In this document: in pieces, positions 3,348 to 40,490 of the stretch | Numbering within the stretch: the first letter of the stretch is position 1 | Layout of the letters: every line of letters starts with the position of its first letter | IMG/VR virus record: IMGVR_UViG_3300048573_000453 | Coordinates: 32,421-96,420 of that record | Strand: one strand, 5' to 3' | Length of the DNA: 64,000 nt | From: a virus | Lineage: Duplodnaviria; Heunggongvirae; Uroviricota; Caudoviricetes | Translations under genes and position numbers: made by a program | Notes under the pieces: generated by a model | The model's input: only the letters and a program-made list of their open reading frames with translations | What the model was told of the DNA's origin: nothing | Databases searched by the model: none

Positions 3348-3350
3348 GAT

Positions 3351-3701: not shown

Positions 3702-3748
3702 TTTAGATTCCTTGAGTTGATGGCGAATTATACCGCACAAAAGTCTAC
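3702..3748 (-). promoter_or_regulatory. P1 copy 2
   Basis: TGCGGTATAATTCGCCATCAACTCAAGGAATCTAAAATG. Confidence 0.5.
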
Positions 3749-4527: not shown

Positions 4528-4575
4528 TTTAGATTCCTTGAGTTGATGGTAAAATTATACCGCAAAAATCAACTA
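4528..4575 (-). promoter_or_regulatory. P1 copy 3
   Basis: TGCGGTATAATTTTACCATCAACTCAAGGAATCTAAAATG. Confidence 0.5.
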
Positions 4576-5226: not shown

Positions 5227-5263
5227 CTTAGCTTCCTGTTTTAGTCATTTTTCTTGATGTCAG

Positions 5264-5638
5264 TTAAATTAATTCATCTGGAACTTTTACTTTTTCGCCA
5301 AGTTTGCTTACTACGTAGCAGCGGAGGGCTGCAAGGAGAGGGGTTTCTCCGTACTGAACAATGCGGGCTGGGTGCTGTACGTCGTGAGTCATTGAGACCC
5401 AGTTACCCGCACCGGATGCACGCAGGTTTAACCGCTCTCGTTCAATAATTTGCCCACCTCTTGCCCAGTCGGTTGAGTAGCTTGGCAGAGGGTTGCCCCA
5501 AGCATGCTCGTAGGCTTGCCACTCTATAAAGCCTTCTTGCTCAAGCATCCAAGGGCACCGGGACGGGTGCTCTTCACACTTCGCTACCAGCCAGTCCAGA
5601 ACGGTCCCACTCGCTTCTGAAACTTTAACGGTTTTCAT
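5264..5638 (-). CDS. hypothetical phage protein (possibly NinX/DUF2591-like)
   Basis: ORF; weak recollection of the family from the ...VLDWLVAKCEEHP... segment. Confidence 0.4.
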   Translation of the reverse strand: MKTVKVSEASGTVLDWLVAKCEEHPSRCPWMLEQEGFIEWQAYEHAWGNPLPSYSTDWARGGQIIERERLNLRASGAGNWVSMTHDVQHPARIVQYGETPLLAALRCYVVSKLGEKVKVPDELI

Positions 5639-5659
5639 GATTTAGTTCCCTAGTTTTGC

Positions 5660-5971
5660 TTAGTATGAGTAAACTTCTTTAGCGAATGGATCGTAGCAGA
5701 ACTGAACGTCCCATTCAAGAATATGTGGCTTATCGCCGACATACATGTACTGACGGAGGTAATCCGCATGATCAGCGTCTGATCCCGACCACCGAAGCCA
5801 AGATGAAGCCTTGGCAAAAGCAGCAGACAAAATAACGATGGCTTCCTTCTGATTATCGGTTTCTGCATTCAGAAAATCTTCATCCTTGACCAGGGTCGAA
5901 AATGCGTTTTCGATATGTCGCTGGAAGTCAATGTCAGGGAAGGCTACGCAGAGTGCCTTTTTGTGTGTCAT
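5660..5971 (-). CDS. hypothetical protein (103 aa)
   Basis: ORF preceded by promoter-module copy A and an AAGGAAAT RBS. Confidence 0.55.
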   Translation of the reverse strand: MTHKKALCVAFPDIDFQRHIENAFSTLVKDEDFLNAETDNQKEAIVILSAAFAKASSWLRWSGSDADHADYLRQYMYVGDKPHILEWDVQFCYDPFAKEVYSY

Positions 5972-6045
5972 GATATATTTCCTTGGTTCAGCGTTTTATA
6001 ATTAAGCATACCGCGGAGTTGAATAAAAGTAAACGGTACCGAAGT
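5972..6045 (-). promoter_or_regulatory. repeated promoter/leader module, copy A
   Basis: CTTTACTTTTATTCAAC-N7-GGTATGCTTAATTATAAAACGCTGAAC...AAGGAAATATATCATG: -35-like TTTACT, 17-bp spacer, -10-like TATGCT/TATACT. Confidence 0.5.
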
Positions 6046-6053
6046 TTACGATT

Positions 6054-6125
6054 TCAAATGAACAAATCCACAATGACAACTATGATCAAGATGGCAAACA
6101 ACAGACGACAGGTATCAGCAATCAT
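6054..6125 (-). CDS. small hydrophobic peptide (23 aa, MIADTCRLLFAILIIVVIVDLFI)
   Basis: Not in ORF track (<60 aa); has its own copy of the promoter module and AAGGAAAT RBS; single predicted TM helix. Confidence 0.45.
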   Translation of the reverse strand: MIADTCRLLFAILIIVVIVDLFI

Positions 6126-6200
6126 AATATATTTCCTTGGTTCAGCGTTTTATAAATTAAGTATACCGCGGAGTTGAATAAAAGTAAAGACCGGCACGTC
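6126..6200 (-). promoter_or_regulatory. repeated promoter/leader module, copy B
   Basis: Same module upstream of the 23-aa peptide gene. Confidence 0.5.
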
Positions 6201-6211
6201 TTTACTGACAT

Positions 6212-28242: not shown

Positions 28243-28559
28243 GACATTGGTTGCAATTTTGAGTCCAAAATCATGTTTCCTACTCTATAATTGTCCGCTT
28301 TTTCTGAAATAAAATGACCTACTGCATAGACATGTCCTTCAAATACAAATTTATTAATTTCGTAATCGTACGTAACAATTTCTTCTGTATTGCCTGCAGA
28401 TCCTGGTCCTACCAAGTTCTTTTGATGATTAACCTCGGACCAGCGAAATGATGACTGAAATTCAGCCCATATTGTTTTACCATTTGCTGGTCCGCCAATA
28501 AACAGAATTTGTTGCATAATTTTCTTATAATGTGGACCGTGCCGGGATCGAACCAGCAA
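28224..28559 (-). CDS. hypothetical protein (111 aa)
   Basis: ORF. Confidence 0.45.
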   Translation of the reverse strand: MLVRSRHGPHYKKIMQQILFIGGPANGKTIWAEFQSSFRWSEVNHQKNLVGPGSAGNTEEIVTYDYEINKFVFEGHVYAVGHFISEKADNYRVGNMILDSKLQPMSCVVYH

Positions 28560-28607
28560 CCTGTATGCTTTAGCAAAGCAACCGCTCTCCCAATTGAGCT
28601 AACGGTC
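28532..28607 (-). tRNA. tRNA, anticodon ambiguous (TTGCTAA loop reads GCU; stem weak with 2 extra nt)
   Basis: 7-bp acceptor GGACCGT/ACGGTCC; D-arm GCTC-AATTGGGA-GAGC; T-arm GCTGG-TTCGATC-CCGGC; no encoded CCA. Confidence 0.6.
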
Positions 28608-28738
28608 CGTAAAATTTCTTATTTAGAACCCCAAGTAGCTTAAAACATTCAATCATTGCGATGTAAGAACTAGTAAAGATGTCGGTTCTTTTTTACGTTC
28701 TGAGTTGTTCTTGAAAAACTCGTCAATGTTTTCGTCGT
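28574..28738. repeat. direct repeat copy 1 (~165 bp, ~93% identical to 29567..29747)
   Basis: Alignment read by eye; covers tRNA 5' part, upstream region and a gene remnant. Confidence 0.85.
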
Positions 28739-28790
28739 GTTCAAGTTCCCCCAACTTATAAGGCACATCTCAGAAATGTTGATATTTTGC
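28652..28790 (-). pseudogene. remnant of a family-B paralog (N-terminal ~8 codons fused to C-terminal ~30 codons, with a frameshift)
   Basis: Encodes ...PYKLGELEHDENIDEFFKNNSERKKEPTSLLVLTSQ*; compare 29657..30262, which starts MKLSTLFEMPYQLGQF and ends ...ENIDEFFIWNNSEHKKEPTSLLVLTSQ*. Confidence 0.55.
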
Positions 28791-28803
28791 TACTGGCGGT
28801 AAT

Positions 28804-29418
28804 TCACTTTGGGTTAAGATAAATTATTTTTTGCTTATATTGCTCGTCAATGATGTCAACATGCCCAATTTCAAAATCTATTAAACTTCTATTTTTAACA
28901 ATTACTTCTCCCAATCCGTCGCCTATTTCTGAGATGTCAAACAGTACTTCTGCACGTTGGGTTGGAATAAAAAGCACAATTCCGGTCCAATTTTTTAAAT
29001 CTTCATCTTTCGTTGCATATAATTCAGCAACCTGTTTTGAAAGCGACCAAGATTCATATCCCTTAAACGGAATATTGATTTGCTTAGTTTGTTCTAGCTG
29101 CTTTATAATTGGAGATCGATTACTAAAAACCATTCCGCGAAAAAGCGTTTCCGATTTCAATTTTGTGGACAAATCTTTAAAATATTTGTCATAGATTTTT
29201 CTTGAACCCACCATATTTGACATAAATTCTGATGCCCAATAGCATAATGGATGGGTTAGTTCAAATTCATCATACAAATCTTCAATTTCTCCATCTTTCA
29301 TTTCATACTTGTTGTTCAAGTATTTGCCAATTTGCATTTCTTTTGTCAATTTGAAACTAACACCGCCAATATTGACGTGTTCTGCGGACGTAGCATTTAA
29401 AATTTCTTTGAGCAGCAT
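28804..29418 (-). CDS. hypothetical protein, possible ADP-ribosyltransferase-like (ModA/ModB-sized)
   Basis: TLFRGMVF (Arg), GYESWSLS (S-x-S), GLGEVIV (single Glu); weak. Confidence 0.3.
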   Translation of the reverse strand: MLLKEILNATSAEHVNIGGVSFKLTKEMQIGKYLNNKYEMKDGEIEDLYDEFELTHPLCYWASEFMSNMVGSRKIYDKYFKDLSTKLKSETLFRGMVFSNRSPIIKQLEQTKQINIPFKGYESWSLSKQVAELYATKDEDLKNWTGIVLFIPTQRAEVLFDISEIGDGLGEVIVKNRSLIDFEIGHVDIIDEQYKQKIIYLNPK

Positions 29419-29523
29419 AAATTCCCCTATAGATCACCGTATTTACTTGATTCTGCATGGAAAACAACTCAAGAGCTAAGGCAAGTTCTTTGATTACTGA
29501 GGCGGGTTTTGCAGGTGTTGAAC

Positions 29524-29559
29524 CCACTACCAACTACCAACTACCAACTACCAACTACC
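29524..29559. repeat. heptamer tandem repeat (CAACTAC)x5
   Basis: ccactac + 4 x caactac. Confidence 0.9.
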
Positions 29560-29566
29560 TGATCCT

Positions 29567-29602
29567 AAAGCAACCGCTCTCCCAATTGAGCTAACAGTCT
29601 GT
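29567..29602 (-). pseudogene. truncated tRNA (5' 36 nt, diverged copy of the tRNA at 28532..28607)
   Basis: ACAGACTGTTAGCTCAATTGGGAGAGCGGTTGCTTT vs ACGGACCGTTAGCTCAATTGGGAGAGCGGTTGCTTT. Confidence 0.6.
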
Positions 29603-29747
29603 AAAATTTCTTATTTAGAACCCCAAGTAGCTTAAAACGTTCAATCATTGCGACAATCATTGTGAAGTAAGAACTAGTAAAGATGTCGGTTCTTTTTTAT
29701 GTTCTGAGTTGTTCCAAATGAAAAACTCGTCAATGTTTTCGCCGTTG
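29567..29747. repeat. direct repeat copy 2 (~180 bp including a 9-bp indel)
   Basis: Matches 28574..28738; overlaps the 3' end of CDS 29657..30262. Confidence 0.85.
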
Positions 29748-30262
29748 TAAATTATTATTTCGCCTGTTTCATCCCTTAACCAATCTTCAAGAGCATCGCT
29801 CCAAATTCTGATTACAAATTTCCTAATTAGGCTTTCTGTTGCCATCTTTTTCCAGAGAGCTTTGCCGCCATCAAACTGTTCAAAATCAGGGACAATTGTA
29901 AAACCGTATCTAGCAAGAAGAACATACATTGCCATTGCAAGGTTTCTGTTTCTAAACTTCGGTTGATTGTACACTGTATGAACTTGTAATTCATTATCTA
30001 CTGGCACCCCCGCTCTATTATCAAAGCGCACAGATAGAACTATTTCATTCCTTTCTGCACCTTTAGACTTGATGGTGACCGTAGCACCACCTTTGTCATT
30101 AGAAAGCCAAAATCTAAATCGATCTTCACCCTGTTCAAGTTCCCCAAGAAAATGATTTTCTCGTTCCAAACCCGCATCTGAAGGTGTAGCAATGTTGCTG
30201 ATAGATGGCGGTTGAAACTGTCCAAGTTGATAAGGCATTTCAAACAACGTTGATAATTTCAT
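29657..30262 (-). CDS. paralog family B protein (full length, 201 aa)
   Basis: ORF; homologous to 25486..26124, 35558..35965 and the fragments at 28652 and 33579. Confidence 0.55.
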   Translation of the reverse strand: MKLSTLFEMPYQLGQFQPPSISNIATPSDAGLERENHFLGELEQGEDRFRFWLSNDKGGATVTIKSKGAERNEIVLSVRFDNRAGVPVDNELQVHTVYNQPKFRNRNLAMAMYVLLARYGFTIVPDFEQFDGGKALWKKMATESLIRKFVIRIWSDALEDWLRDETGEIIIYNGENIDEFFIWNNSEHKKEPTSLLVLTSQ

Positions 30263-30873
30263 AACTTTACAAATGGGCCAGTTTTTAAGAATTCTGTTAG
30301 GGACGCTCTTCTAGGGTCAATCCATTCGGCATTATTAATTTGTTTTAAGCTTACTAAGAATTCATTTGGCCGATTTCTTCGTTGGTAAAAATATCCATTT
30401 TTCTGTCTTGCAATTCTTCGTGCAAGCATTTCGTAAAGTTTTACAGTTTGCTGGAACTGTTTATTATTTTGGCTATGAAAGTATTCGGCCGAAAAATAAA
30501 ATGGAACGTCACTAATCTTATCAGCTAAAGCATTTAGAACCACCCCATAGACAGTTGACGGTACAACATCAGAAGATTTAGCGGGTTTTAAAAATGCTTG
30601 GTTGCTATCTTCGTTTCTAAAGAAACATACTTCAAAAGCATTTTCGACTGTAACTGCTGGGCCAATCTGTATTATAAATTGCTGTTCGTCCCAAATGAAT
30701 GCTGTTAATTCATAATCCCCATGTTTTTGCCAAACTAGGTCAAGTTTAGTATCAAAAATTTCGTAAAGAAAACTATCCATAATTGCTTTCTCCAAATTTA
30801 AAAACTCCCTGGGCACAAATCCCAGGGAGTTTTTAAACGGTTTTGGAGGAGCATAATAGAATCGAACTATCAC
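30259..30873 (-). CDS. paralog family A protein (204 aa)
   Basis: Shares ...WQ(K/Q)(H/N)G..EL(T/A)(A/S)F... and ...YGVVLNA... with 55903..56469 and 56466..57023. Confidence 0.5.
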   Translation of the reverse strand: MIVRFYYAPPKPFKNSLGFVPREFLNLEKAIMDSFLYEIFDTKLDLVWQKHGDYELTAFIWDEQQFIIQIGPAVTVENAFEVCFFRNEDSNQAFLKPAKSSDVVPSTVYGVVLNALADKISDVPFYFSAEYFHSQNNKQFQQTVKLYEMLARRIARQKNGYFYQRRNRPNEFLVSLKQINNAEWIDPRRASLTEFLKTGPFVKL

Positions 30874-30933
30874 CGTTTCATCAACGGTGGGACGGTTTTC
30901 AAGACCGTGTGTCTGCCATAGACCCTACACTCC
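30844..30933 (-). tRNA. tRNA-Ser(TGA), type II
   Basis: Anticodon arm ACGGT-CTTGAAA-ACCGT; long variable arm CCGTT-GATGA-AACGG; T-loop TTCGATT; 3' CCA encoded. Confidence 0.8.
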
Positions 30934-30947
30934 AAAAATACTTTGAT

Positions 30948-31031
30948 TGGATGCCCCAGGTATCGAACCTGGCATGTTATAAAAACGCGGAGTGTTCAAT
31001 TCCGGCCACCTCCTTAGTGGTATAGACATCC
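30948..31031 (-). tRNA. tRNA-like, type II with long variable region; anticodon ambiguous (9-nt loop ATTGAACAC)
   Basis: Acceptor GGATGTC/GGCATCC; D-arm TACC..GGTG; T-arm CCAGG-TTCGATA-CCTGG; weak 4-bp anticodon stem. Confidence 0.4.
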
Positions 31032-31044
31032 AATTTTAAAACCC

Positions 31045-31095
31045 CTTTGTCCGGCCAGCTGGATTCGAACCAGCGACTTATTGCTTAGCTTACCA
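31045..31095 (-). other. tRNA 3'-half-like segment (T-arm GCTGG-TTCGAAT-CCAGC + acceptor 3' strand TGGCCGG)
   Basis: Base-pairs over 13 nt with the 5'-half-like segment at 31510..31556. Confidence 0.35.
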
Positions 31096-31401
31096 CTATA
31101 GCTTTCGCTACTGAGAATTTTTATCTTCCCGCGCGTGGTCTGAGCTTTGTCTTCATCTGTTCTAGATGGTAGCCGTCAAGTCTCTACACGTTCCTTTTTC
31201 AAGGCTTCGCTCGGCGTTGGCATAAAAATACTGTCCTCTGGATTAAATGTATTTATGCAGCGTTCGCCGAATTTGACTACATTCACAATAAACATCCCTA
31301 TTTATGTGCCCCATTAGAACTGTTTAACATATTTGCTTCTTATTCATTGTCGTAGAATTATTGTAACTCAAATTATTCTATCTAGAATAATAAATTAAAA
31401 T

Positions 31402-31494
31402 GTACTTTGCTCGCCAGAGTGGATTCGAACCACCATTGACTCCGTTACGGTACTACGCTTTAGAAGAGCGCTCCGGTACTGGCGAGCAAAGTAC
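31402..31494 (-). other. inverted-repeat-bounded tRNA-like element (16-bp IR GTACTTTGCTCGCCAG)
   Basis: Contains T-arm GGTGG-TTCGAAT-CCACT and an anticodon-like hairpin GCGCT-CTTCTAA-AGCGT (UCU); no canonical D-arm. Confidence 0.35.
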
Positions 31495-31509
31495 AATCAG
31501 GTAAAAGGT

Positions 31510-31556
31510 TAAATACTCAAAATTACTCTATCCATCTGAGTTATGGCCGGACAAAG
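31510..31556 (-). other. tRNA 5'-half-like segment (acceptor 5' strand CCGGCCA + D-arm ACTC-AGATGGAT-AGAGT)
   Basis: 13-bp inverted repeat with 31045..31057 (CTTTGTCCGGCCA / TGGCCGGACAAAG). Confidence 0.35.
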
Positions 31557-31594
31557 AGGTCTTTCTAATCATATACAAATTTCCAAAACATAAA

Positions 31595-31708
31595 TGGTAG
31601 GCCGTGTTGGACTCGAACCAACGACCAAAGGATTATTCTTCGGCTTCTTTTGTTATTATCCAACAGAATGCCTGAGTCCTCTGCTCTAACCAACTGAGCT
31701 AACGGCCC
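31595..31708 (-). tRNA. tRNA with expanded anticodon region (114 nt; ~38 extra nt between anticodon-stem halves)
   Basis: Acceptor GGGCCGT/ACGGCCT + A + CCA; D-arm GCTC-AGTTGGTT-AGAGC; T-arm GTTGG-TTCGAGT-CCAAC; stem halves GAGGA ... TCCTT are 44 nt apart. Confidence 0.55.
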
Positions 31709-31890
31709 ACACTTTTTGCATTCTCCAATTATACCATACTTTTCTATCTTTACAAATTTATTTTTGTTTTACTAAAGAATAAACAGTTCGATTTCTTCTT
31801 CAGAAGGAGTTTTTCTGCCAAGAATCTTGTAAAAAGCTTTTGAATTTTCTATCCATTCCGGGGAAGCAAATGCAAAATTTACGTTTCTAT

Positions 31891-32238
31891 TCACCCACTT
31901 GTAAAGCGCATCGTATAATTTTTTCGACTTTCAACTAATCCCGAAGTTTTATCAACGGCGATTAAAATGAAATCCGGCCCTAGTTCCTGAAGTTTTGGGA
32001 CAGCAGCATTTAACACTGCCCCAATTAGTTTGGCAGCAGGAATTTCTCCACCTGTAGCCTTATTGGTGCCATTTACAGCAAACCCAAAATCTATAAGATG
32101 TTTTGATTCTACATCGTATTCATCAATTTGTACATGACAAAGTTTGCCATCAATGATAAATTCCCCGATGTGCCTATGCCCAACATTTTCCCATTTGACT
32201 ATTGGTTTAGTGTTTAGAATTTCAAGCAAATTCATCAA
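31891..32238 (-). CDS. hypothetical protein (115 aa), possibly a short family-A relative
   Basis: ORF; ...KLIGAVLNAAVPKLQEL resembles the family-A YGVVLNA segment. Confidence 0.45.
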   Translation of the reverse strand: MMNLLEILNTKPIVKWENVGHRHIGEFIIDGKLCHVQIDEYDVESKHLIDFGFAVNGTNKATGGEIPAAKLIGAVLNAAVPKLQELGPDFILIAVDKTSGLVESRKNYTMRFTSG

Positions 32239-32810
32239 AGTAGATTTTCAATTGAATTAATCATAGGCAGCGCGATATGTTGCTTTCTAACTTTACATTT
32301 ATCCCACGTGTATTTGGTTCCACCGTCTTTTGGGATGTCCCCTCTGCCAAAGGTATACGCAAGCATAAAATCACATCCTGCTGCAACTTTATCATTTCTT
32401 CCAAACATTCCGGAATAACCGTTAGATTTTGGCTCGTATGTAACGAACTGTTTTGAATCTATGACTTCTGCTATTTGTCGGAGCGAATCATACCCTATTA
32501 TTTGGCTGAACTTTTCATGGTAAAAATTGCATGCCCTAGAGGTCTTATTGTAAGCTGCATCGCTAAAACGTTTTGTCTGAAGACAGAAAGGTGCAGGTAA
32601 ATGTAAAATTATATCCTTACATTTTCCTGTCAAAAACAATTCGACAGCTAAATGATCTGCCCATGCAGCTCCACCAGAAATCACCGTATCATCTTCACGA
32701 ACATCTGAAGAAACATCCCGAATCATCCAGCGCCATAATTCTTTAGACATCGGAATCAATTTATCCCTTCCAGCAGTTCCTATAATAGCAATTTTCATCT
32801 CTACTCCCAA
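32235..32810 (-). CDS. SLOG/DprA-like Rossmann-fold protein
   Basis: IAIIGTAGRD ... ISGGAAWADHLAVE pattern typical of the SLOG (Smf/DprA-LOG) superfamily. Confidence 0.4.
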   Translation of the reverse strand: MGVEMKIAIIGTAGRDKLIPMSKELWRWMIRDVSSDVREDDTVISGGAAWADHLAVELFLTGKCKDIILHLPAPFCLQTKRFSDAAYNKTSRACNFYHEKFSQIIGYDSLRQIAEVIDSKQFVTYEPKSNGYSGMFGRNDKVAAGCDFMLAYTFGRGDIPKDGGTKYTWDKCKVRKQHIALPMINSIENLL

Positions 32811-32816
32811 AGCTGC

Positions 32817-33368
32817 TTAATCTTCATGCAACGCAAAGACATAATCATGAAGACCGTTAATCTTTTTACAAATTGACTGACTTTCAACAATTAAAGCTTT
32901 CTCATAATTATTGTAAAGCTCAACTGGAACAATGTCAGTTATTTCATGCGTTTTTAAATCAATCATTTTTACAGGCCACTGATCGCGCAATTTGTCCCAT
33001 AGCCCGATTGTTTCTCTCGACTGTTCAACGTCTGAAATCAAGGCGAAGTTTAGAGTGTTGTATATAAACCGATATAGGTTTACTATAATTCCTCTCCTCC
33101 TATAGTTTGGGGAACACCATGAGCGCTTGACCATTAGTACTGACTTGTTTGAAGGCAGGTTTAAATCATCTATTGTTGTTAAAAGTAGCGCTGCAATTAT
33201 GCTATCATCCTTTTTCACGATGAAAACTTTAATATCCCCAGATGATCCAAGTTCAATTGTATAATCTTGGAGATAGTCGAGGCACACGATTTTAAAATTA
33301 GTAATTTTGTTTAAGTCAAATCCCAAATTAGGTTGACTTACAACTCGTGCAATCTCAGATAATTTCAT
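32817..33368 (-). CDS. hypothetical protein (183 aa)
   Basis: ORF. Confidence 0.45.
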   Translation of the reverse strand: MKLSEIARVVSQPNLGFDLNKITNFKIVCLDYLQDYTIELGSSGDIKVFIVKKDDSIIAALLLTTIDDLNLPSNKSVLMVKRSWCSPNYRRRGIIVNLYRFIYNTLNFALISDVEQSRETIGLWDKLRDQWPVKMIDLKTHEITDIVPVELYNNYEKALIVESQSICKKINGLHDYVFALHED

Positions 33369-33578
33369 AATTAGAAATTTTAAAATGGGATAAATTCACC
33401 GACATTCAATCCGACCAGACTAAAATACGGAACAAGCTTGCCAAACCGTATCAGCCCAGTAAGTTGCCAAGCTTATTCAACGGTCTCTGCGCAATCTATG
33501 GTAGTTATTTTTCCGTTACGTAATTTCCGCTTTTTGACTCACTTGAATTTTTTGCATTTCAAACCTTTAAAAATTGAA

Positions 33579-33690
33579 CTATTTTGATGTAAGCACTAAT
33601 AACGTTGTCGCTTCATTGTGCTGGGAAATATCTTTCCAAATTTGGTCATCATCGAGATTTTCAGCATTATAATTACGCGGTTCTATAAAA
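33579..33690 (-). pseudogene. C-terminal fragment of a family-B paralog displaced by the IS insertion
   Basis: Encodes ...NYNAENLDDDQIWKDISQHNEATTLLVLTSK*; compare ...IYNGENIDEFFIWNNSEHKKEPTSLLVLTSQ*; no start codon. Confidence 0.6.
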
Positions 33691-34908
33691 ATCTATAAAA
33701 CTCACTAAACGCTTCACAGAAGCTGCCTTTGGAAGAACTTCCTTAGGTCTTACTGCCCCTCCACGTCTGTACTCGGTTAATTCAGCCGAGGTCATGTCAT
33801 AAAGGTCCTTTACACCTTCATTTAAAATATTGATAGCCGCATTTAAGTCGCGATCATGGCTTGAGCCGCATATTGGGCATGTCCATTCTCTTATGGATAA
33901 ATCCATCGTTTCCATTTTATGGCCGCAGCAAGAACACGTCTTACTCGATGGGAACCAAGTATCTATCTTATGAAATGTGCGGCCATACCACCTACTTTTG
34001 TATTCCAGCATTGAAATAAAAGTGGACCAACTTGCATCAAGTATGGATTTTGCCAAACTATGATTCTTAACCATGTTTTTAACTTTTAGAGTTTCAGTAC
34101 AAATAACATCGTAATTTTCTATTAACCAACTCGACAGGTTATGGTAAATGAACTTGCGCTGATTTACAATATCCCTATGGATTTTCGCAACTTTGATTTT
34201 CTGTTTATTGTACCTTTTAGAACCCTTTGTTTTTCTGCTTAAATGCTGCTGTGACCGTTTTAGTTTAGATTGGTTTTCTCTGAACCATCTTGGATTGGAA
34301 ATTTGCGTACCATCACTTAAGATGAGCAAGTTTTTCAATCCGAGATCAATACCGATTGAGCGACCAGTATTTTGTTTCAATTCTATTTCTTCTTCAACTA
34401 AAATTGAAACAAAATATTGCCCACTTGGATTTTTAGAAATTGTGACAGATTTTGGTTTACCAGTAAAAGGTCTATCTATGATTACTTTTACTGGAGACAT
34501 TTTTGGAAATTTAATAAAACCTGCTTTAATTTGTTCAAATTTTTCTAAATGCATTGAAGCCGCAGGAATCCTAAATGATTCATTGCCACCCCGCTTTTTA
34601 AATTTTGGTCTTCCCAGTTTAGCTTTACGGTTTTTAGAGAAAAATTGCTTTTTGGTTTCATCAAAATCGATTCGTTTTTGCTGCAAGGCATAACTAATAG
34701 CATCTTTAAGCCATGGAAAGTTCTCATCATCTTTCAAAATCTTCTCATTCATTGGTCGGTTTGGGCCTTCTTTTGAAAAAGAATTAAAATTGGCAACTAA
34801 CTGATTCCAAATGAAGCGAACACATCCAAAATTTTGGAGAAGAAATTTCTCTTGCTTATTATTAGGATATATTCGGTACTTAAAAGCCTTAAGAACTGTA
34901 TTTGTCAT
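33673..34908 (-). CDS. tnpB: TnpB (OrfB) RNA-guided-nuclease-family protein of an IS607/IS200-605-type element
   Basis: N-terminal KYRIYPNNKQEKFLLQNFGCVRFIWN; zinc finger CSCCGH...CPICG; RuvC-III DRDLNAAINI. Confidence 0.85.
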   Translation of the reverse strand: MTNTVLKAFKYRIYPNNKQEKFLLQNFGCVRFIWNQLVANFNSFSKEGPNRPMNEKILKDDENFPWLKDAISYALQQKRIDFDETKKQFFSKNRKAKLGRPKFKKRGGNESFRIPAASMHLEKFEQIKAGFIKFPKMSPVKVIIDRPFTGKPKSVTISKNPSGQYFVSILVEEEIELKQNTGRSIGIDLGLKNLLILSDGTQISNPRWFRENQSKLKRSQQHLSRKTKGSKRYNKQKIKVAKIHRDIVNQRKFIYHNLSSWLIENYDVICTETLKVKNMVKNHSLAKSILDASWSTFISMLEYKSRWYGRTFHKIDTWFPSSKTCSCCGHKMETMDLSIREWTCPICGSSHDRDLNAAINILNEGVKDLYDMTSAELTEYRRGGAVRPKEVLPKAASVKRLVSFIDFYRTA

Positions 34909-35501
34909 TTTTCTGAATCGTTAGCTAATTCTTGAACCAATTTTTCCGTATTCCGTTTGCTGCGGCGCTGTCCATAAATTCTTGCGCAAAAAGATGTAAT
35001 GACGGACACAAAATCCTGAACAATGTCTTCTTTATCTGACTCTACATTATTCACTACATCGATTTCAATGCCATTAGAATTTAATAGCTGTTCAATATAA
35101 TTGAAACCGAATCTAGTCAGCCGATCCTTATGTTCAACTACTAATTTAGTAAAATCCTGTTCCTTAAGAAGCTTTTCCAGTTTTGGCCTCTTATCATTTA
35201 GTCCAGATCCAAATTCTGTAACGACTTTAGCAACTTTGTAACCTCTAGCGTTACAATATGAAATCAACCTTTCGGATTGAGTCTCAAGATTAGATTTATT
35301 TGCAGTCGAAGAAACACGACAATAAATCACTACGCGTTCTTCTTCCTTGGCCTTTATACCAAGGAATTTGTTGTAAGTTTCAATATCAACATAATTCATT
35401 GAACCAATTTTATGAAATTGTATTTTTCCAGCCTTCTTCCAATTCCACAGCGTCATCCTGGTTACACCAAGATCTGCAGCAAATTTTTTAAGTTTAATCA
35501 T
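34905..35501 (-). CDS. tnpA: IS607-type serine recombinase transposase TnpA (MerR-like HTH + resolvase catalytic domain)
   Basis: VIYCRVSSTANKSNLETQ catalytic Ser region; ...VTEFGSGLNDKRPKLEKLL...VVEHKDRLTRF. Confidence 0.8.
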   Translation of the reverse strand: MIKLKKFAADLGVTRMTLWNWKKAGKIQFHKIGSMNYVDIETYNKFLGIKAKEEERVVIYCRVSSTANKSNLETQSERLISYCNARGYKVAKVVTEFGSGLNDKRPKLEKLLKEQDFTKLVVEHKDRLTRFGFNYIEQLLNSNGIEIDVVNNVESDKEDIVQDFVSVITSFCARIYGQRRSKRNTEKLVQELANDSEK

Positions 35502-35557
35502 TTGATTTCCTATATAAGATATATTATATTTATACTTTTATTTATAGGAATTGAGAT

Positions 35558-35965
35558 TTAAATATAATATTGGGTAAAATCTGAAACAATAGTAAATCCG
35601 TATCGCGCCAAAACTACGTAAAGCGCCATTGCTAATCCCTGGGTTTGAAACTTTGCGTGAGTATAAACAGATTCAACTTGCAGCTCATTTTCTACTGGAA
35701 GGTTTGAACGGTTATTAAAACGCACTTTAGTTATAGTTAATTGACGAGGTTGGCCAATATCGTCTACGCCTGAAGTAGTAACTTCGGCATAAAATTTACC
35801 CTTATTTAGCCAAAAATGGTATTCAGTTCCACCTTTTTCAAGGGTTCCCAAAAAATCATTCATACGACGCAAATTTTCAAGAGATGGATAATTGTCCATC
35901 TTGATAATGGGCCTCGCATCTTGGTCCATATGATATGGGCCCTCAAAAAGTTCTTGGGTTTTCAT
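35558..35965 (-). CDS. paralog family B protein, 3'-truncated by the IS insertion (start at ATG 35965)
   Basis: MKTQELFEGPYHM... aligns to MKLSTLFEMPYQL...; ends ...SDFTQYYI* where intact paralogs continue. Confidence 0.55.
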   Translation of the reverse strand: MKTQELFEGPYHMDQDARPIIKMDNYPSLENLRRMNDFLGTLEKGGTEYHFWLNKGKFYAEVTTSGVDDIGQPRQLTITKVRFNNRSNLPVENELQVESVYTHAKFQTQGLAMALYVVLARYGFTIVSDFTQYYI

Positions 35966-36078
35966 GTCAATTTTTATTTTAGGTCTTGATTTAACTGCCA
36001 GTGCGTCGGTTTCCCAACGACAGTTTAGCAAACTGCTCCCTTAACCAACTTAACCACTCGTGCAAAAATCCATTTTTT

Positions 36079-36156
36079 TGGTGCCGCTTATCTGACTCGA
36101 ACAGGCGGCACCTATTGCTTACACGGCACGTACTCTTCTAACTGAGCCAAAGCAGC
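36079..36156 (-). tRNA. tRNA-like, 78 nt with CCA, degenerate anticodon arm (possible pseudogene)
   Basis: Acceptor GCTGCTT/AAGCGGC; D-arm GCTC-AGTTAGAA-GAGT; T-loop TTCGAGT; anticodon stem not convincingly pairable. Confidence 0.4.
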
Positions 36157-36162
36157 AATAAC

Positions 36163-36238
36163 TGGCTCCCTAGCGTGGGATCGAACCACGGACAACTTGA
36201 TTAACAGTCAAGCGCTCTACCGACTGAGCTACTAGAGA
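36163..36238 (-). tRNA. tRNA-Asn(GTT)
   Basis: D-arm GCTC-AGTCGGT-AGAGC; anticodon arm CTTGA-CTGTTAA-TCAAG; T-arm CGTGG-TTCGATC-CCACG; CCA encoded. Confidence 0.85.
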
Positions 36239-36246
36239 ATAAATTT

Positions 36247-36324
36247 TGGTTGCGGATGCTGGATTCGAACCAGCGACCTCTTGATTATGAGCCAAGTGAG
36301 ATAACCATGCTTCTCTAATCCGCA
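36247..36324 (-). tRNA. tRNA-Met/Ile2(CAT)
   Basis: Acceptor TGCGGAT/ATCCGCA; anticodon arm CTTGG-CTCATAA-TCAAG; T-arm GCTGG-TTCGAAT-CCAGC; CCA encoded. Confidence 0.8.
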
Positions 36325-36337
36325 ACAAATTTAAAAT

Positions 36338-36412
36338 TGGCGTCCCTACCTGGAATCGAACCAGGTCCTGCAGCGTGAAAGGCTATCGATCTAACCAGTA
36401 ATCTATAGGGAC
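36338..36412 (-). tRNA. tRNA-Glu(TTC)
   Basis: Acceptor GTCCCTA/TAGGGAC; anticodon loop CTTTCAC; T-arm CCTGG-TTCGATT-CCAGG; CCA encoded; 4-nt variable loop. Confidence 0.75.
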
Positions 36413-36536
36413 AAAAACTTTAGTCATAGAATTTAAAATCCTTCGAACTAAGTTTTAACGTAATGCGCATTACGCAAAATTTCGTATGCAGTGAATATCT
36501 ATTTATAGTGCCCACAGCAAATGCTCTTCAATAATT

Positions 36537-36956
36537 TTATAATTCTTCAAATAAATTTTCGAATTCACCAGAGATGCAAATTACATCATTTGACTCGGAA
36601 ATTTCCCCAGTTAGTCTGCTTCTTAAAGCGGTTTTAAGTGCTCTAGGATCACTCAACTGTCGAAATTCGAATTGCACTTTGAGGTGCCGGAATGCAGTAT
36701 TTATTGCACGGAAAACAAAATCATGCACGTTAAGCATATGGTCTATTGAGACGACATTTGCCGTGCTGAATGAATACAATGGAACTCCTCCGCAAAGACG
36801 GTGTTCGTCTTTTAGGACCCTAAAAGTTATTTCAGGATCTTCTGAACTCATTTCCACTAAATGCGATAGAAACGTACTAAGCTTAAGTGGCTCAATGTAT
36901 TCGCGCCTTGGCAAAGATGACCAAGCATAAACTTCATAGCACGTTTCTTTTCGCAT
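36537..36956 (-). CDS. hypothetical protein (139 aa)
   Basis: ORF. Confidence 0.45.
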   Translation of the reverse strand: MRKETCYEVYAWSSLPRREYIEPLKLSTFLSHLVEMSSEDPEITFRVLKDEHRLCGGVPLYSFSTANVVSIDHMLNVHDFVFRAINTAFRHLKVQFEFRQLSDPRALKTALRSRLTGEISESNDVICISGEFENLFEEL

Positions 36957-36971
36957 CTGTCAACCCTAAAA

Positions 36972-37277
36972 TTATGCTAGCGCAATACCGGTAGTTTGTT
37001 CAAGATACTGGCGAGTGACTTCAGCGTCAGTATCCACAACACACATGACAAATGTTGCTGGAATATCTACTTCACGCAAAGTTGGGTTTGAAAGCGTCCA
37101 AGGCATAAATGCCAACCCCATTTGCCCCGAATTTCCAAATGGGCGAAATTGTAATGTTTGTGGTTTACTAACCCGATACGCAGCAACATTACTGTCAAGA
37201 GTTGCAGAAATTTTAGAAACAAGCGTAGCAACAACTTCTTCACCAGACACCAACTTCAAAGTAACTACATTAGACAT
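36972..37277 (-). CDS. hypothetical protein (101 aa)
   Basis: ORF. Confidence 0.45.
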   Translation of the reverse strand: MSNVVTLKLVSGEEVVATLVSKISATLDSNVAAYRVSKPQTLQFRPFGNSGQMGLAFMPWTLSNPTLREVDIPATFVMCVVDTDAEVTRQYLEQTTGIALA

Positions 37278-37357
37278 AAACTATGATCTCCAAAAGGTTA
37301 AAAATAAGACTTGAGCAAGTCAATGTTATTATACCATGTTTATCTGAAGATGTAAAC

Positions 37358-37642
37358 TTATTGTTTTGGGCGGCGAACACGTTTTGTCTGTAGAGCCTTT
37401 TTAAAAATTGACTTAACATCGGGAACAAACTTTGCTGCAACAAGAGCGTCTATATGAGTCTGATTAATAAAAATTTGTCGATGTGGCAGAATGAGCCCAA
37501 GATTTGTTCGAACGAAGTCGCGAACGAGTAATGTGTCAACTTTACCAAATTGATCTGAGTGGCAATAAAAGATGAACAATAAGTTGAGTTCAAGTTCTGA
37601 GTAGTTGGGCAAGATTGATCCTTCACTGTTTAACGTACACAC
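37358..37642 (-). CDS. hypothetical protein (94 aa)
   Basis: ORF. Confidence 0.4.
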   Translation of the reverse strand: MCTLNSEGSILPNYSELELNLLFIFYCHSDQFGKVDTLLVRDFVRTNLGLILPHRQIFINQTHIDALVAAKFVPDVKSIFKKALQTKRVRRPKQ

Positions 37643-37701
37643 TTACTATTAGTGTGAAGAACTTTTTAAATTCCATTTGGTATTTATCGAGTGCACAAAA
37701 C

Positions 37702-37729
37702 AAAAAAGCGGACATTTGTCCGCTTTCGT
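37702..37729 (-). terminator. rho-independent terminator (minus strand)
   Basis: GCGGAC-ATTT-GTCCGC hairpin followed by TTTTTTGTTTTG on the minus strand, just after the stop of 37749..38084. Confidence 0.7.
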
Positions 37730-37748
37730 TCTTATTAGGTTTATGTGC

Positions 37749-38084
37749 TTAACTAATCTTTTTTGGCTTCAAATCGTTTATTCCAATGCTTTCAAGAACT
37801 TCAGCAATCCCAAGTGCAAGTTGATCTATAGGGGATTCCTTATGCTCGCCTTCATCATTCATTAGCTCGCGAATATTGTACTCGTTGATAATACCATGTA
37901 AAACTTCATGAAGCACTAGACGTAATTCGCGCTCGGGGCTAGTCTTCAAAACCCTAATCGAGTGCTGCAAATAACTTATCTGTCCCCACAATTTTTGACC
38001 GCTGCCATCATGGCAAACATCTAGTTCGCCTTTAACGGTTTTAATCTTATACGGAATGCCGCCAATCTTTATTTCTGTTCGCAT
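37749..38084 (-). CDS. small HExxH zinc-metallopeptidase-like protein
   Basis: LVLHEVLHGI (HExxH) motif. Confidence 0.4.
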   Translation of the reverse strand: MRTEIKIGGIPYKIKTVKGELDVCHDGSGQKLWGQISYLQHSIRVLKTSPERELRLVLHEVLHGIINEYNIRELMNDEGEHKESPIDQLALGIAEVLESIGINDLKPKKIS

Positions 38085-38101
38085 AATTTCTCAGTAAATT
38101 T

Positions 38102-38821
38102 TTAATCGTCTGATGACCAAATTGAAGTGCTAATTTTCTTCGTGCTAAAGTCTATTTCAACACTGACGCCTTTTGTATGGCCCCACTTATCGTCTACTGC
38201 CGATGTAGTAAAAGAAGAAACTACGTAACCAGTTTCAAGCGAATGTTTCACAAATGGCGTAAAACTTTGAACTGTAACCCCCAGCATAATAAAACCATTA
38301 TCTTTAAACCAATCAAACGCTGCTTGGTTTTTATCAGCCGCATTTTTGATAATCTTTGGAAGTTGGTCCATTGCGTCCTTAGCAATTTCTGGCATATTCG
38401 AACGCAATTCTTCTTGAATCTGTTTAACAATGCCACTTTTGTATTCCAAATGCATATCTAGAATCGTTTTGTTAAGTCGCTTCAGGCCATCGCTATTGTC
38501 AAAATCTGAAACAGCAAAATAAATCGCTGACTTCACTTTAGGGCTGGAACCCTTTAGCATATAACCAAGAACCTTCTTATTATCTTTCTCAATCGACACC
38601 CGTTTTAGATTGCCAATCGCGACTGTATTTAAACTGGCAACCACTGGAACTTCATGTTCGATACCATCATTGCACTTGACCATAACGGTTTGGTCTGAGA
38701 TTTTCAGGCCCATTTTTACCGCATTTTGTATAGGGTAATTAAACAGCTCACGAGTGCTTGAAGCCTTCATTCGCATTTCGCCTGTTGAAATATGAAATTC
38801 TGGGGTGTCTTGAATGTTCAT
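38102..38821 (-). CDS. hypothetical protein (239 aa)
   Basis: ORF. Confidence 0.5.
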   Translation of the reverse strand: MNIQDTPEFHISTGEMRMKASSTRELFNYPIQNAVKMGLKISDQTVMVKCNDGIEHEVPVVASLNTVAIGNLKRVSIEKDNKKVLGYMLKGSSPKVKSAIYFAVSDFDNSDGLKRLNKTILDMHLEYKSGIVKQIQEELRSNMPEIAKDAMDQLPKIIKNAADKNQAAFDWFKDNGFIMLGVTVQSFTPFVKHSLETGYVVSSFTTSAVDDKWGHTKGVSVEIDFSTKKISTSIWSSDD

Positions 38822-38824
38822 CTT

Positions 38825-39568
38825 TTAATCCAAACTAATAGTTAATGCCTTACATGATGCACCAAATTTTAAAAATTCAGATACATCAAGCGTAAGGATA
38901 TTATACCCTAGTTCTTTGAGCTTTCTTGACAACGCTTTAGAAAATTTAGAACCTATAATACTTTGGCCGACACAGATAGAATTGCAGACTAAGCCTAGAG
39001 CATCTTCACGTGAAATAGCTATCAATTTATCATCGAACATTTGTTCAAGCACATATTTCGAATGGTTCGAAAATGCCGCAGGAAAATAAAGAGCGTGACC
39101 ATCAGAAAGTATGCATAAACATGTATCTAGCGTTGAGAACACCGGATCTGCAAGTTCAAGAGGGCGAACTAATAAATCAGTCGATTCTAAAATTTTATCC
39201 AACGCAAACTTGCCATCTAGCAAAGTCTCGTATCCAAATCCCAAGAATAAATTATCCCCGTCGATAATGACGTCTCTTCCAGAGAAGGCTGCGTGTTCTT
39301 TCCCAATAATTGCAAACGAACGAAATTTTGGTTCTGCCCATTCTAAAAAGTTGCATTCAGAACTGGAAATAAAAGTGTCGCCGATAATGATTCCCGCATC
39401 AGCGCAAATAGAAGACTGCACAGGAACACTTGGCACAATAACATCTACCCCAACAGAGATAAGAGCATTACGTAAATTGGCCCACTGTTTTGCCTGTAAA
39501 GTCCTGGTCATTGCCATTTCTTTCGGCGCATCATTTGTTGGAGTAAACATTAAAAACTGCTTTGTCAT
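38825..39568 (-). CDS. amidinotransferase/DDAH-superfamily-like protein
   Basis: Conserved Cys near the C-terminus (GASCKALT) and overall pattern; weak. Confidence 0.3.
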   Translation of the reverse strand: MTKQFLMFTPTNDAPKEMAMTRTLQAKQWANLRNALISVGVDVIVPSVPVQSSICADAGIIIGDTFISSSECNFLEWAEPKFRSFAIIGKEHAAFSGRDVIIDGDNLFLGFGYETLLDGKFALDKILESTDLLVRPLELADPVFSTLDTCLCILSDGHALYFPAAFSNHSKYVLEQMFDDKLIAISREDALGLVCNSICVGQSIIGSKFSKALSRKLKELGYNILTLDVSEFLKFGASCKALTISLD

Positions 39569-39607
39569 TTATTTCCTTAGGTTTCTATTTGTCCTATTGT
39601 GGAAGTC

Positions 39608-39634
39608 ATAAAAGCTCACTTAAAAGTGAGCTTT
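39608..39634 (-). terminator. bidirectional rho-independent terminator
   Basis: Perfect palindrome AAAAGCTCACTT/AAGTGAGCTTTT. Confidence 0.65.
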
Positions 39635-39638
39635 TGAA

Positions 39639-39830
39639 TTATGCGCCTAAAATATGTTTTTCAAATTTAGCCGCAAGAGCAGAAATCTGAGCATCCCTAA
39701 CAGATGAACCTGTATCTGGTGCATAAGCTAATTCAGCTTTCCAAACATCTATTGCAAGTGCGATAGAGATAATTTTTACTTCTTCTAAAGAAGGAATTTT
39801 CCCGCTAATTGTGAAATTTGATGAAATCAA
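39639..39830 (-). CDS. hypothetical protein (63 aa)
   Basis: ORF. Confidence 0.4.
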   Translation of the reverse strand: MISSNFTISGKIPSLEEVKIISIALAIDVWKAELAYAPDTGSSVRDAQISALAAKFEKHILGA

Positions 39831-39920
39831 TTTTGTCCCCTAAGAAAAATGCAGTAACAGAAAATACCGTTACTGCATTATAAACTTTAATTAAATTGTT
39901 GTAAACTTATTTGCAGCCAG

Positions 39921-40490
39921 TTACCGAAGTTTCATCGGCTCTTCTTTTCCTGTTTCAAACGCATTATCTGCTCGCGCGGTTGAAACAATCTTATACTCAT
40001 CCAGATTCAATTTGGGAAATCCAGCAATTCGCAACCATGTGCCTGTCCAGAAATACCCAAGGGAAGTTTCATAACTTCGCTTGATGTCGAGCATCGCAGT
40101 TTGGCTATTCTTAAATTCATCACGACCAGCTTCAATCGACTGTTGAATCCGCAAATAAACTTTGCTATCAAGTTGCGGATTTTGTTCTTGGATCCACTGC
40201 ATGGTTGCTTTGGAACCGCCTTCACCATAGCGACCTTCAATCGCAGCGGTAACAACTTCTTTCAAATCATTCTTCATCATCTCCGGAACTTGAACCATCT
40301 CGGCAATCTTTTGGCCATATTGAGCAAGTACGTTTCGGTTATCATCACGCTTTGCTTTGAGTTGGGCTTCAATCGTTACCCCGTGGTTGTTTGCACTAAC
40401 ATAGCTGCCGAATGCAATGCCTGCTAGGCCTCCCAAAAACACTAAAACAGCCAGCAGCACAATAATCATTCCACCAATTTGCTTTTTCAT
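39921..40490 (-). CDS. LemA family membrane protein
   Basis: N-terminal TM segment then LemA-like conserved segment (GSYVSANN...QLKAKRDDNRNVLAQYGQKIAEM). Confidence 0.5.
   Translation of the reverse strand: MKKQIGGMIIVLLAVLVFLGGLAGIAFGSYVSANNHGVTIEAQLKAKRDDNRNVLAQYGQKIAEMVQVPEMMKNDLKEVVTAAIEGRYGEGGSKATMQWIQEQNPQLDSKVYLRIQQSIEAGRDEFKNSQTAMLDIKRSYETSLGYFWTGTWLRIAGFPKLNLDEYKIVSTARADNAFETGKEEPMKLR

Follow-up and report, generated by a model that had tools for sequence, protein, structure and literature searches.

What has split a gene of this uncultured large phage, and is the intruder still a working mobile element? The window, by which we mean the whole 64,000-nucleotide stretch of DNA analysed, carries a transposase gene and a nuclease gene between two pieces of a phage gene. 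We think it very probable (roughly 85%, judging from sequence comparisons) that positions 33669..35566, minus strand, are an autonomous 1,898-bp IS607-family insertion sequence within a gene of ~204 aa. The element belongs to a known kind and is not a new type of system. It is an intact example that was probably mobile recently. By its sequence it departs from the textbook IS607 element in two ways: its core is TAT and its left flanks are RRTAT, in place of GG, and its TnpB is ISDra2-like, not IS607-type. The features are, in order of transcription:

35561..35965, minus strand: N-terminal fragment of the phage gene, 135 codons, matching the intact orthologue P0002 and a paralogue in the window
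35567..35569, minus strand: TAT core, left copy, which serves as the Tyr codon of ...TQY, flank AATAT; presumed crossover and target motif
35502..35566, minus strand: AT-rich left end of 65 nt, upstream of tnpA, that carries CTATAAATA and GTATAAATA as subterminal motifs
34905..35501, minus strand: tnpA, serine transposase of the IS607 family, 198 aa; its N-terminal region is DNA-binding, its C-terminal domain catalytic
33673..34908, minus strand: tnpB, predicted RNA-guided endonuclease, 411 aa, ISDra2-like by profile, structure and catalytic-residue matches
33669..33803, minus strand: candidate omega-RNA scaffold, ~135 nt, covering the right end and the ~43 final codons of tnpB, including two TTTATAG and the terminal TTAT
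33653..33668, minus strand: predicted guide AATGCTGAAAATCTCG, flanking phage DNA past the right end
33579..33668, minus strand: C-terminal fragment of the phage gene, 29 codons plus stop, start-less, NAENLDDDQIWKDISQHNEATTLLVLTSK where P0002 has NAENLDDEQIWDDISRNNEATTLLVLTSK, each followed by the stop

A serine transposase and an ISDra2-like nuclease

The initial annotation placed both genes correctly on the minus strand, and family profiles (NF033518, NF040570, Pfam) bear out their identity. Residues 5-183 of TnpA match the NCBIfam equivalog NF033518, 'IS607 family transposase', with 200.9 bits (cut-off 110). Residues 57-189 match Pfam Resolvase, and residues 56-191 match the catalytic domains of ISC1926 and IS1535 TnpA in the PDB (E 6e-30 and 2e-29). 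tnpB lies downstream of tnpA in the same orientation, and the two reading frames overlap by 4 nt.

TnpB matches Pfam HTH_OrfB_IS605, OrfB_IS605 and Cas12f1-like_TNB (PF12323, PF01385, PF07282, all above cut-offs) and NF040570 (331 bits, cut-off 100). It scores 405.8 bits against NF038281 IS200_TnpB, slightly below the cut-off of 425, but only 174.9 bits against NF038280 IS607_TnpB, where the cut-off is 350. The ISDra2 TnpB structures 8BF8, 8EXA and 8H1J match residues 7-367 (E 1e-76). On these sequence and profile matches TnpB is ISDra2-like, not IS607-type. The zinc finger and RuvC motif noticed initially are intact: in an alignment of 25 homologues the catalytic triad D188/E272/D354 and the cysteines C325/C328/C344/C347 (CxxC...CxxC) are invariant. 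A nuclease-dead regulator of the TldR type is ruled out by the intact triad.

Five insertions define the ends

Element ends were set by five independent insertions, in the window and in the contigs L036, L033/L034, L035 and L132, whose TnpBs are 85-100% identical to that of the window. The left end begins at 35566, directly after the flanking TAT (35567..35569). The right end stops at 33669 and reads ...GCGTAA-TTAT, where TTAT is 33672..33669; tnpB thus reaches the end of the element, as had been proposed, with its stop 4 nt from the right end. In all five insertions the flank next to the left end finishes in RRTAT, and the element itself finishes in ...GCGTAA-TTAT where the right flank begins. 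Related tnpB genes, solo copies included, have the same terminus (...TAA-TTAT).

TAT is present at both junctions in all five cases. The left flanks are AATAT, AGTAT, GATAT, AGTAT and AATAT, and the right end, at these same five sites, is ATTAT. A GG core and a G-rich target, found in most but not all IS607 members (PMC13565253; GG is also typical according to PMC10690162), were not encountered, and we treat the TAT core as a variant feature that does not define the family. In-silico removal that keeps one TAT restores reading frames in L033, L035 and L036 (381, 232 and 408 aa at three of the five sites), an outcome that, from sequence alone, fits a shared core and a 3-bp TAT duplication alike.

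The left-end sequence is conserved in the window, L036 and L132 and recognisable in L033 and L035. Terminal inverted repeats are absent: the ends are TAT-TATATTTAAATC... and ...AACCGCGTAATTAT, and only the subterminal 7-nt CTATAAA recurs, in opposite orientation. This motif is confined to the vicinity of both ends (3 sites versus 0.8 expected) and appears inverted at the right end, as TTTATAG at 33693..33699 and 33683..33689. A scan for promoters and terminators gave no signal above shuffled expectation.

The interrupted phage gene

The N-terminal fragment is 77% identical to residues 1-133 of P0002, an intact orthologue of 204 aa. At least one paralogue of the gene lies in the window, at 29657..30262; the N-terminal fragment matches it with 47% identity (E 3e-35), and the C-terminal fragment matches its C-terminus (E 2e-6). 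Insertion into a paralogous phage gene, as the initial annotation had it, agrees with these matches and with intact orthologues of 198-227 aa in other metagenomes, to which both fragments align.

Could the two pieces be independent small genes that flank the element by chance? The N-terminal fragment has its own start and stop, and all sampled genomes of the lineage share the arrangement. However, that fragment ends with two codons (Y, I) and a stop (35558..35560) that the left end of the element contributes, the C-terminal fragment lacks a start codon, and virtual excision of the element brings the two into one frame. Moreover, 24 homologues of 198-227 aa cover both fragments colinearly, which contradicts the possibility, raised initially, that relatives carry them as separate intact genes. 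By these sequence comparisons the idea of two separate genes is already contradicted, and we consider it next to impossible.

Compared with P0002, the split gene lacks 41 codons, or 123 nt, in frame (NGGKALWKK...GGIIK in P0002), and not the ~190 nt first estimated. The missing 123 nt are not retained within the element: conserved element sequence makes up its left end, and on the right the flank begins 4 nt past the tnpB stop. We take the loss to be a secondary event, separate from the insertion, that arose either by slippage between the two TAT-AAT (Tyr-Asn) repeats or by an adjacent deletion begun at the element's end.

A candidate guide RNA at the right end

An omega-RNA that overlaps the 3' end of tnpB and takes its guide from the flank had been suggested, and the position of the right end, a covarying fold and synonymous constraint all speak for it. 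In a gapless alignment of eight elements, four of them closely related, the candidate scaffold folds into 35 pairs, 98.6% paired versus 34-46% in slid controls, with compensatory changes in six pairs; the structure was derived from the same eight sequences that were used to score it. The terminal hairpin shows no covariation and may instead reflect TnpA-binding repeats. Synonymous-codon identity is 0.72-0.74 in the last ~45 codons of tnpB versus 0.34-0.60 elsewhere in the gene, and the constraint is limited to these codons. Since the fold of the window sequence alone is unremarkable (z = -1.4), the structural evidence depends on comparison between elements. The covarying fold and the synonymous conservation at the 3' end of tnpB are as expected of an omega-RNA scaffold. 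Inside the element, a Rfam scan of 30000..40000 at E<=1 detected neither an omega-RNA nor a RAGATH-18 or intron family. The sole intron-like match of that scan lies outside it, at 31140..31336.

The guide is predicted from the position of the right end and the known architecture of TnpB and omega-RNA (PMC8612924, PMC10690162). It is whatever adjoins the right end and differs at every insertion site.

That last property bears on the suggestion that the phage has domesticated TnpB and its guide RNA, either as a weapon in co-infections with related phages or as an RNA-guided regulator, and no longer as part of a transposon. The guide is directed at a phage gene family, the TnpB lineage was met here only in phage-like gene neighbourhoods, often without tnpA, and the block made up of the element and its near flanks is identical in genomes that are mosaic elsewhere. 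Yet the guide has no second match within the 64-kb window at <=3 mismatches, and against the nearest intact orthologue it has 4 mismatches, with TAC replacing TAT. The adjacent tnpA is intact and the ends are conserved; the intact nuclease residues also argue against a TldR-type repressor. With near-identical copies at five sites as well, the domesticated nuclease of the initial annotation finds no support, and we regard it as quite improbable.

Copies, distribution and mobility

Close copies were located via a protein database. The element is identical in seven contigs, with 0 differences in 1,897 nt, while the flanks differ by up to 1.2%; the identical block, 33311..35639, comprises the element and its near flanks. 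In one contig, L131, the right end adjoins a different GATAT site, 41 nt further on. As far as its sequence can tell, this junction points to recent rearrangement or movement. A 41-nt hop would predict a junction of GGAAAGATAT with TATATTTAAATC. An adjacent deletion would predict CCCAATAT joined to TATATTT on the same molecules as TTAT joined to TTCCCAGC.

Alternatively, the element may be a fixed passenger that can no longer move. The youth of the insertion would then be the sole reason why its genes look intact, and neither phage nor element would at present have a use for TnpB and its RNA. All 12 contigs that carry the exact TnpB have the same insertion site. Within the phage lineage of the window we found no element-free allele, with no empty site above 77% protein identity, and the 64-kb window holds no second copy. 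Many TnpB relatives at 60-70% identity are solo tnpB genes, and decayed tnpA remnants were seen in two of four. Against this stand the integrity of both reading frames and all catalytic residues, near-identical copies at five different sites in other phage-like contigs, the changed right junction in L131 and the complete lack of substitutions in the element. A fixed passenger is conceivable, but we consider it unlikely; an element that was probably mobile recently is the reading we prefer.

For the genes split in L033 and L036 the window has no homologue, and for this reason there is no reciprocal empty site. Among 50,697 phage records, none matched 33300..36100 in a DNA search at near-identity, nor did tblastn of the N-terminal fragment against the phage records give a match; the collection holds no sequenced close relative of this phage. 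Scans of IMG/VR with the N-terminal fragment and TnpB turned up only remote relatives (35% and up to 46%, across most of the protein), and a metagenome scan with a TnpB alignment gave relatives of <=48% among the matches listed. No host copy appeared in a genome-collection scan (best full-length TnpB match 46%), which is weak evidence of absence because the scan uses exact peptide words.

The initial annotation overstated the rarity of such elements in phages: by tblastn, TnpB homologues occur in 433 and IS607-type TnpA homologues in 81 of the 50,697 phage records. Among them are large phages such as Thermus phage TMA, Staphylococcus vB_SauM phages and Microcystis LMM01, known as lytic myoviruses. 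The label T4-like applies only loosely to the phage of the window: its clamp loader matches jumbo myoviruses best, at 38-43% identity, and no close relative is in the collection.

A possible cycle of excision and homing

We propose that TnpA would excise the element as a double-stranded circle and insert it into RRTAT sites, with the crossover inside the TAT core. The expected circle junction is ...GCGTAATTAT joined to TATATTTAAATC, and the expected donor joint is CCCAATAT joined to AATGCTG, that is, CCCAATAT joined to AATGCTGAAAATC. Transcription through tnpB would yield the omega-RNA, with the last ~135 nt of the element as scaffold and the first ~16 nt of the right flank as guide. TnpB with this RNA would cut the element-free joint (a TAM of about RRTAT, a motif based on five sites, plus a guide match), and recombination with an occupied copy after the cut would restore or spread the element. 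The occupied site would be spared, as ATTAT at the right end differs from the RRTAT flanks at position -4.

A bolder version of this scheme, which we offer tentatively and think rather doubtful, is that a TAT-core IS607 lineage with an ISDra2-like TnpB lives mainly among large phages and acts as an RNA-guided gene drive at co-infection. TnpB would cut the element-free (or intact) alleles that related phages carry, and their repair would copy in both the element and a few hundred bases beside it. This would explain why genomes that differ by ~1% in the neighbouring DNA share the block 33311..35639 without a difference. The guide would be renewed again and again by end-adjacent deletions or short hops from RRTAT to RRTAT, of which the 123-nt loss and the shift by 41 nt in L131 would be examples. 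By cutting a co-infecting relative's element-free allele, a nuclease carried by a phage could spread through repair and co-convert flanks (reviewed in PMC13565253), and by analogy the identical block fits the homing pattern of T-even endonucleases. The free-standing homing endonucleases of T-even phages (SegB, SegF and others; PMC13565253) offer a functional analogy only; recognition by the window element would be RNA-guided and tied to a transposon.

Comparison with known systems

Among solved structures, the closest natural TnpB is that of ISDra2 (IS200/IS605 family, Deinococcus radiodurans), with the same domain set and 408 aa versus 411 aa here. In both elements the guide RNA scaffold, predicted in the window, overlaps the 3' end of tnpB and reads into the right flank, and an AT-rich motif lies beside the left end: TTGAT in ISDra2 (PMC10690162), candidate RRTAT here. 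However, ISDra2 moves by a Y1 (HUH) TnpA via single-stranded DNA, whereas the partner in the window is a serine recombinase. Polyphyletic pairing of 'typical' TnpBs with serine TnpA has already been described (PMC10691335).

The IS607-family IStron of Clostridium botulinum (CboTnpA-S and CboTnpB; Zedaveinyte et al., PMC10690162) likewise has a serine TnpA followed by tnpB. It excises without a scar via a core at both junctions, as the window element would with its TAT, and its transposase target equals the TnpB TAM, as RRTAT may in the window. At the right end each has a near-TAM, a putative one in the window, that is one position off (TGGG versus TCGG in the IStron, PMC10690162; RRTAT versus ATTAT in the window). 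It differs in its core (GG, with TAM TGGG, versus TAT) and in its TnpB clade, given the low NF038280 score of the window protein. An IStron has a group I intron at its 5' end, whereas no Rfam intron match lies within 33669..35566, which rules out the IStron class for the window element.

ISFba1-type IS607 TnpBs, which use RAGATH-18-derived RNAs (PMC11061315), share the IS607 context and a guide RNA from the right end. Their RNAs are located entirely 3' of the coding sequence, with AGGAG or GAGGG as TAM (PMC11061315), in contrast to the overlapping scaffold and AT-rich flanks in the window. As no RAGATH-18 was found in the Rfam scan, the window element was not placed in that class either.

IS607-type TnpA and TnpB pairs have already been deposited for isolated phages with large genomes: TMA_132/131 in Thermus phage TMA, ISCbt4 in Clostridium phage c-st, and pairs in Nodularia and Staphylococcus vB_SauM phages. 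All are <50% identical to the window element; the best phage match to its TnpA is that of Thermus phage TMA (48.7% identity).

Implications

The element provides a clean case, from nature, of an IS607-type insertion sequence that sits intact and with exact ends in a phage genome. Its AT-rich target motif RRTAT is unlike the G-rich motifs of characterised IS607 systems, its TnpB is compact and ISDra2-like, and its candidate guide scaffold can be read directly. TnpB is a candidate small nuclease with a different, putative TAM. The element also offers a testable case in which to ask if a transposon nuclease can drive homing from one co-infecting phage to another.

The element and its proteins

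The IS607-type element occupies 1,898 bp on the minus strand of the window (33669..35566) and is as long as its copy in contig L036. Its two genes lie on the minus strand where the initial annotation had placed them, and share an ATGA overlap:

34905..35501, minus strand: tnpA, 198 aa; NCBIfam IS607 family transposase profile and Pfam Resolvase
33673..34908, minus strand: tnpB, 411 aa; three TnpB Pfam domains and NF040570

The NCBIfam and Pfam matches for both proteins bear out their assignment as an IS607-family TnpA and a TnpB. With 200.9 bits, TnpA clears the cut-off (110) of the NCBIfam equivalog 'IS607 family transposase'. Its residues 56-191 align with solved catalytic domains of IS607-family TnpA (ISC1926 and IS1535), leaving an N-terminal DNA-binding region. 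TnpB fits the IS200/IS605-type TnpB model (405.8 bits) far better than the IS607-type model (174.9 bits), and its closest natural protein with a solved structure is ISDra2 TnpB (E 1e-76). An alignment of 25 homologues shows no variation at D188, E272, D354 or any of the four zinc-finger cysteines.

The finding is real, its core interpretation is correct, and the element belongs to an already known kind. Homologues of TnpB are found in 433 phage records and those of IS607-type TnpA in 81; large lytic phages are among them. Serine transposases have been described before as partners of 'typical' TnpBs, in pairings that are polyphyletic (PMC10691335).

In the phage collection we found no close relative of this phage. 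Its clamp loader shares 38-43% identity with jumbo-myovirus clamp loaders, so calling it T4-like is only loosely right.

Element ends and insertion sites

TnpB relatives of 93%, 86% and 85% identity occur in the protein database, as does P0152, a further member of the window TnpB's 90%-identity cluster. They come from other contigs, which have phage-like gene content and one of which is 291,687 nt long. Including the window, five independent insertions could be compared. At the left junction all five flanks end in RRTAT (AATAT, AGTAT, GATAT, AGTAT, AATAT), and the left end that comes next is conserved and AT-rich; at the right junction all five read ...TTTTATAGAACNGCGTAA-TTAT before unrelated flank. 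Hence the tnpB stop lies 4 nt short of the element end, close to the initial reading that tnpB runs to the very end.

There are no terminal inverted repeats at the element ends. The 7-nt sequence CTATAAA is confined to the vicinity of both ends, in opposite orientations, and is a candidate TnpA binding site.

When the element is deleted in silico and a single TAT retained, intact ORFs reappear in L033 (381 aa), L036 (232 aa) and L035 (408 aa). It follows that the element normally inserts cleanly and that the loss of 123 nt at the window's site is a separate event. The ORF restored in L035 is another, unrelated tnpB; L035 thus carries a nested transposon. Its copy (3049..6203; TnpB 86% identical to the window's) sits in this different tnpB on the opposite strand.

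Four further contigs (L117-L120) carry solo tnpB genes, 60-70% identical, in phage-like neighbourhoods and with a right end likewise reading ...TAA-TTAT. Decayed tnpA remnants upstream of tnpB in L118 and L120 suggest that this TnpB lineage has lost its transposase repeatedly.

The split gene

As initially proposed, the element splits a phage gene. The upstream ORF (start 35965) aligns with the in-window paralogue 29657..30262 except for its final two codons, and a frame without a start codon directly past the element aligns with that paralogue's C-terminus. A protein search returned 24 full-length relatives (198-227 aa), the nearest being P0002 (77% identity); it found no element-free allele closer than 77%. 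Joining the flanks without the element restores the frame (...DFTQY|NAENLDD...). Compared with P0002, the window gene lacks 41 codons (NGGKALWKK...GGIIK), that is 123 nt and not the ~190 nt first estimated.

Both breakpoints of this loss coincide with Tyr-Asn codons of the intact orthologue (cagTATAATggc and aaaTACAATgca). A deletion between two TAT-AAT repeats would give exactly the virtual empty site of the window, CAATAT|AATGCT. Three routes fit: an in-frame slippage allele that arose before the element inserted, an adjacent deletion made by TnpA between one of the ends and a nearby RRTAT, or leaky cleavage by TnpB of its own flank followed by microhomology repair.

Contig L131 (Logan SRR35627171) has another right junction. 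At 1833..1845 (window 33628..33672) the terminal TTAT adjoins TTCCCAGC, skipping 41 nt (AATGCTG...AAAGATAT) that end in another GATAT; the contig is otherwise identical. Since it has no left flank, both a further adjacent deletion and a 41-nt hop would explain this junction. Whichever it is, the right junction of the element is not static.

A candidate guide RNA scaffold at the tnpB 3' end

Eight elements, among them solo tnpB genes of 60-70% identity, could be aligned gap-free over the final 234 nt of tnpB and the TTAT that follows. RNAalifold predicts a multi-helix fold across the last ~135 nt. Scored on the same eight sequences that produced it, four of them closely related, its 35 pairs are paired in 98.6% of cells, versus 34-46% with partners slid by 1-3 columns, and six pairs show both-sided changes versus 0-1 in the slid controls. 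The terminal hairpin has no covariation and overlies the CTATAAA repeats. Independently of the fold, codon identity at same-amino-acid sites is 0.34-0.60 along tnpB and climbs to 0.72-0.74 over the final ~45 codons.

By sequence comparison, the conserved fold, compensatory pairs and synonymous constraint thus favour the suggested overlap of the guide RNA with the tnpB 3' end, an architecture known for ISDra2-type TnpB (PMC8612924, PMC10278001). A covariance model built from these aligned elements has a single match in the window, and weaker ones where distant tnpB genes end, for example in Vibrio phage 1.170.O. By analogy, the guide is predicted to be the right-flank sequence AATGCTGAAAATCTCG (33653..33668), which has no second match within the window.

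Surroundings and spread of the element

The surroundings of the element contain the following features:

36082..36412 and 28532..31032, minus strand: two tRNA clusters bracketing the region
36082..36156: weak tRNA-like match, 28.2 bits
33369..33578: 210-nt non-coding spacer between the C-fragment stop and the next gene, invariant among contigs
32817..33368: gene next to the spacer, weak GNAT-like match
31598..31708, minus strand: tRNA, Rfam 57.6 bits, 40-nt insert in the anticodon loop
31410..31485: tRNA, called by Rfam only
31140..31336, minus strand: group-I-intron-like match RF00028, 40.8 bits (below the gathering score of 50), E 9e-9

Genes for tRNA-Glu, tRNA-Met and tRNA-Asn and the fourth, weak match lie directly upstream of the disrupted gene. 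The tRNA at 31598..31708 is absent from the ARAGORN calls and may be an intron-containing phage tRNA. The RF00028 match lies among the clustered tRNAs, not in the insertion sequence.

Twelve contigs, drawn from several samples, contain the exact window TnpB, and in all of them it occupies the same site. Across seven contigs the element shows no difference in up to 1,897 nt, and the flanks differ blockwise, by up to 24 in 2,060 nt (L029). The tract invariant among the compared contigs, 33311..35639, comprises the element and its near flanks. Assuming independence, the chance of no difference in the element is ~1e-7; since the differences are clustered, this figure is only suggestive. The pattern is suggestive of a recent spread of the element together with its near flanks, such as homing with co-conversion would produce.

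Compared with the near-identical phage contigs L029, L030, L128 and L129, window 32300..36500 differs in tight blocks (for example 17 differences in 32307..32489 in L129 and 11 in 33050..33310 in L029), which indicates mosaic recombination in the phage population.

A possible life cycle

Drawing on established IS607 knowledge (PMC4058570, PMC6188088, PMC10690162), we propose that TnpA would cut the element out as a circle and reinsert it by a crossover inside the TAT core. TnpB with its RNA would cleave the element-free joint (RRTAT plus guide match), and recombination after cleavage could restore or spread the element. The right end, ATTAT, differs from the five left flanks, and so departs from RRTAT, at position -4. 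It resembles in this the C. botulinum element, where experiments showed a TAM (the motif beside the left end) of TGGG versus a right end of TCGG (PMC10690162).

In characterised IS607 systems the core is GG and the TAMs are G-rich (TGGG, AGGAG, GAGGG; PMC10690162, PMC11061315, PMC13565253), whereas the TAT core and RRTAT flanks seen here are a variant feature. The value of this element lies in its exactly defined ends and AT-rich target motif, in a guide scaffold that is readable from sequence, and in signs that it may have moved recently and spread among large phages in a homing-like way.
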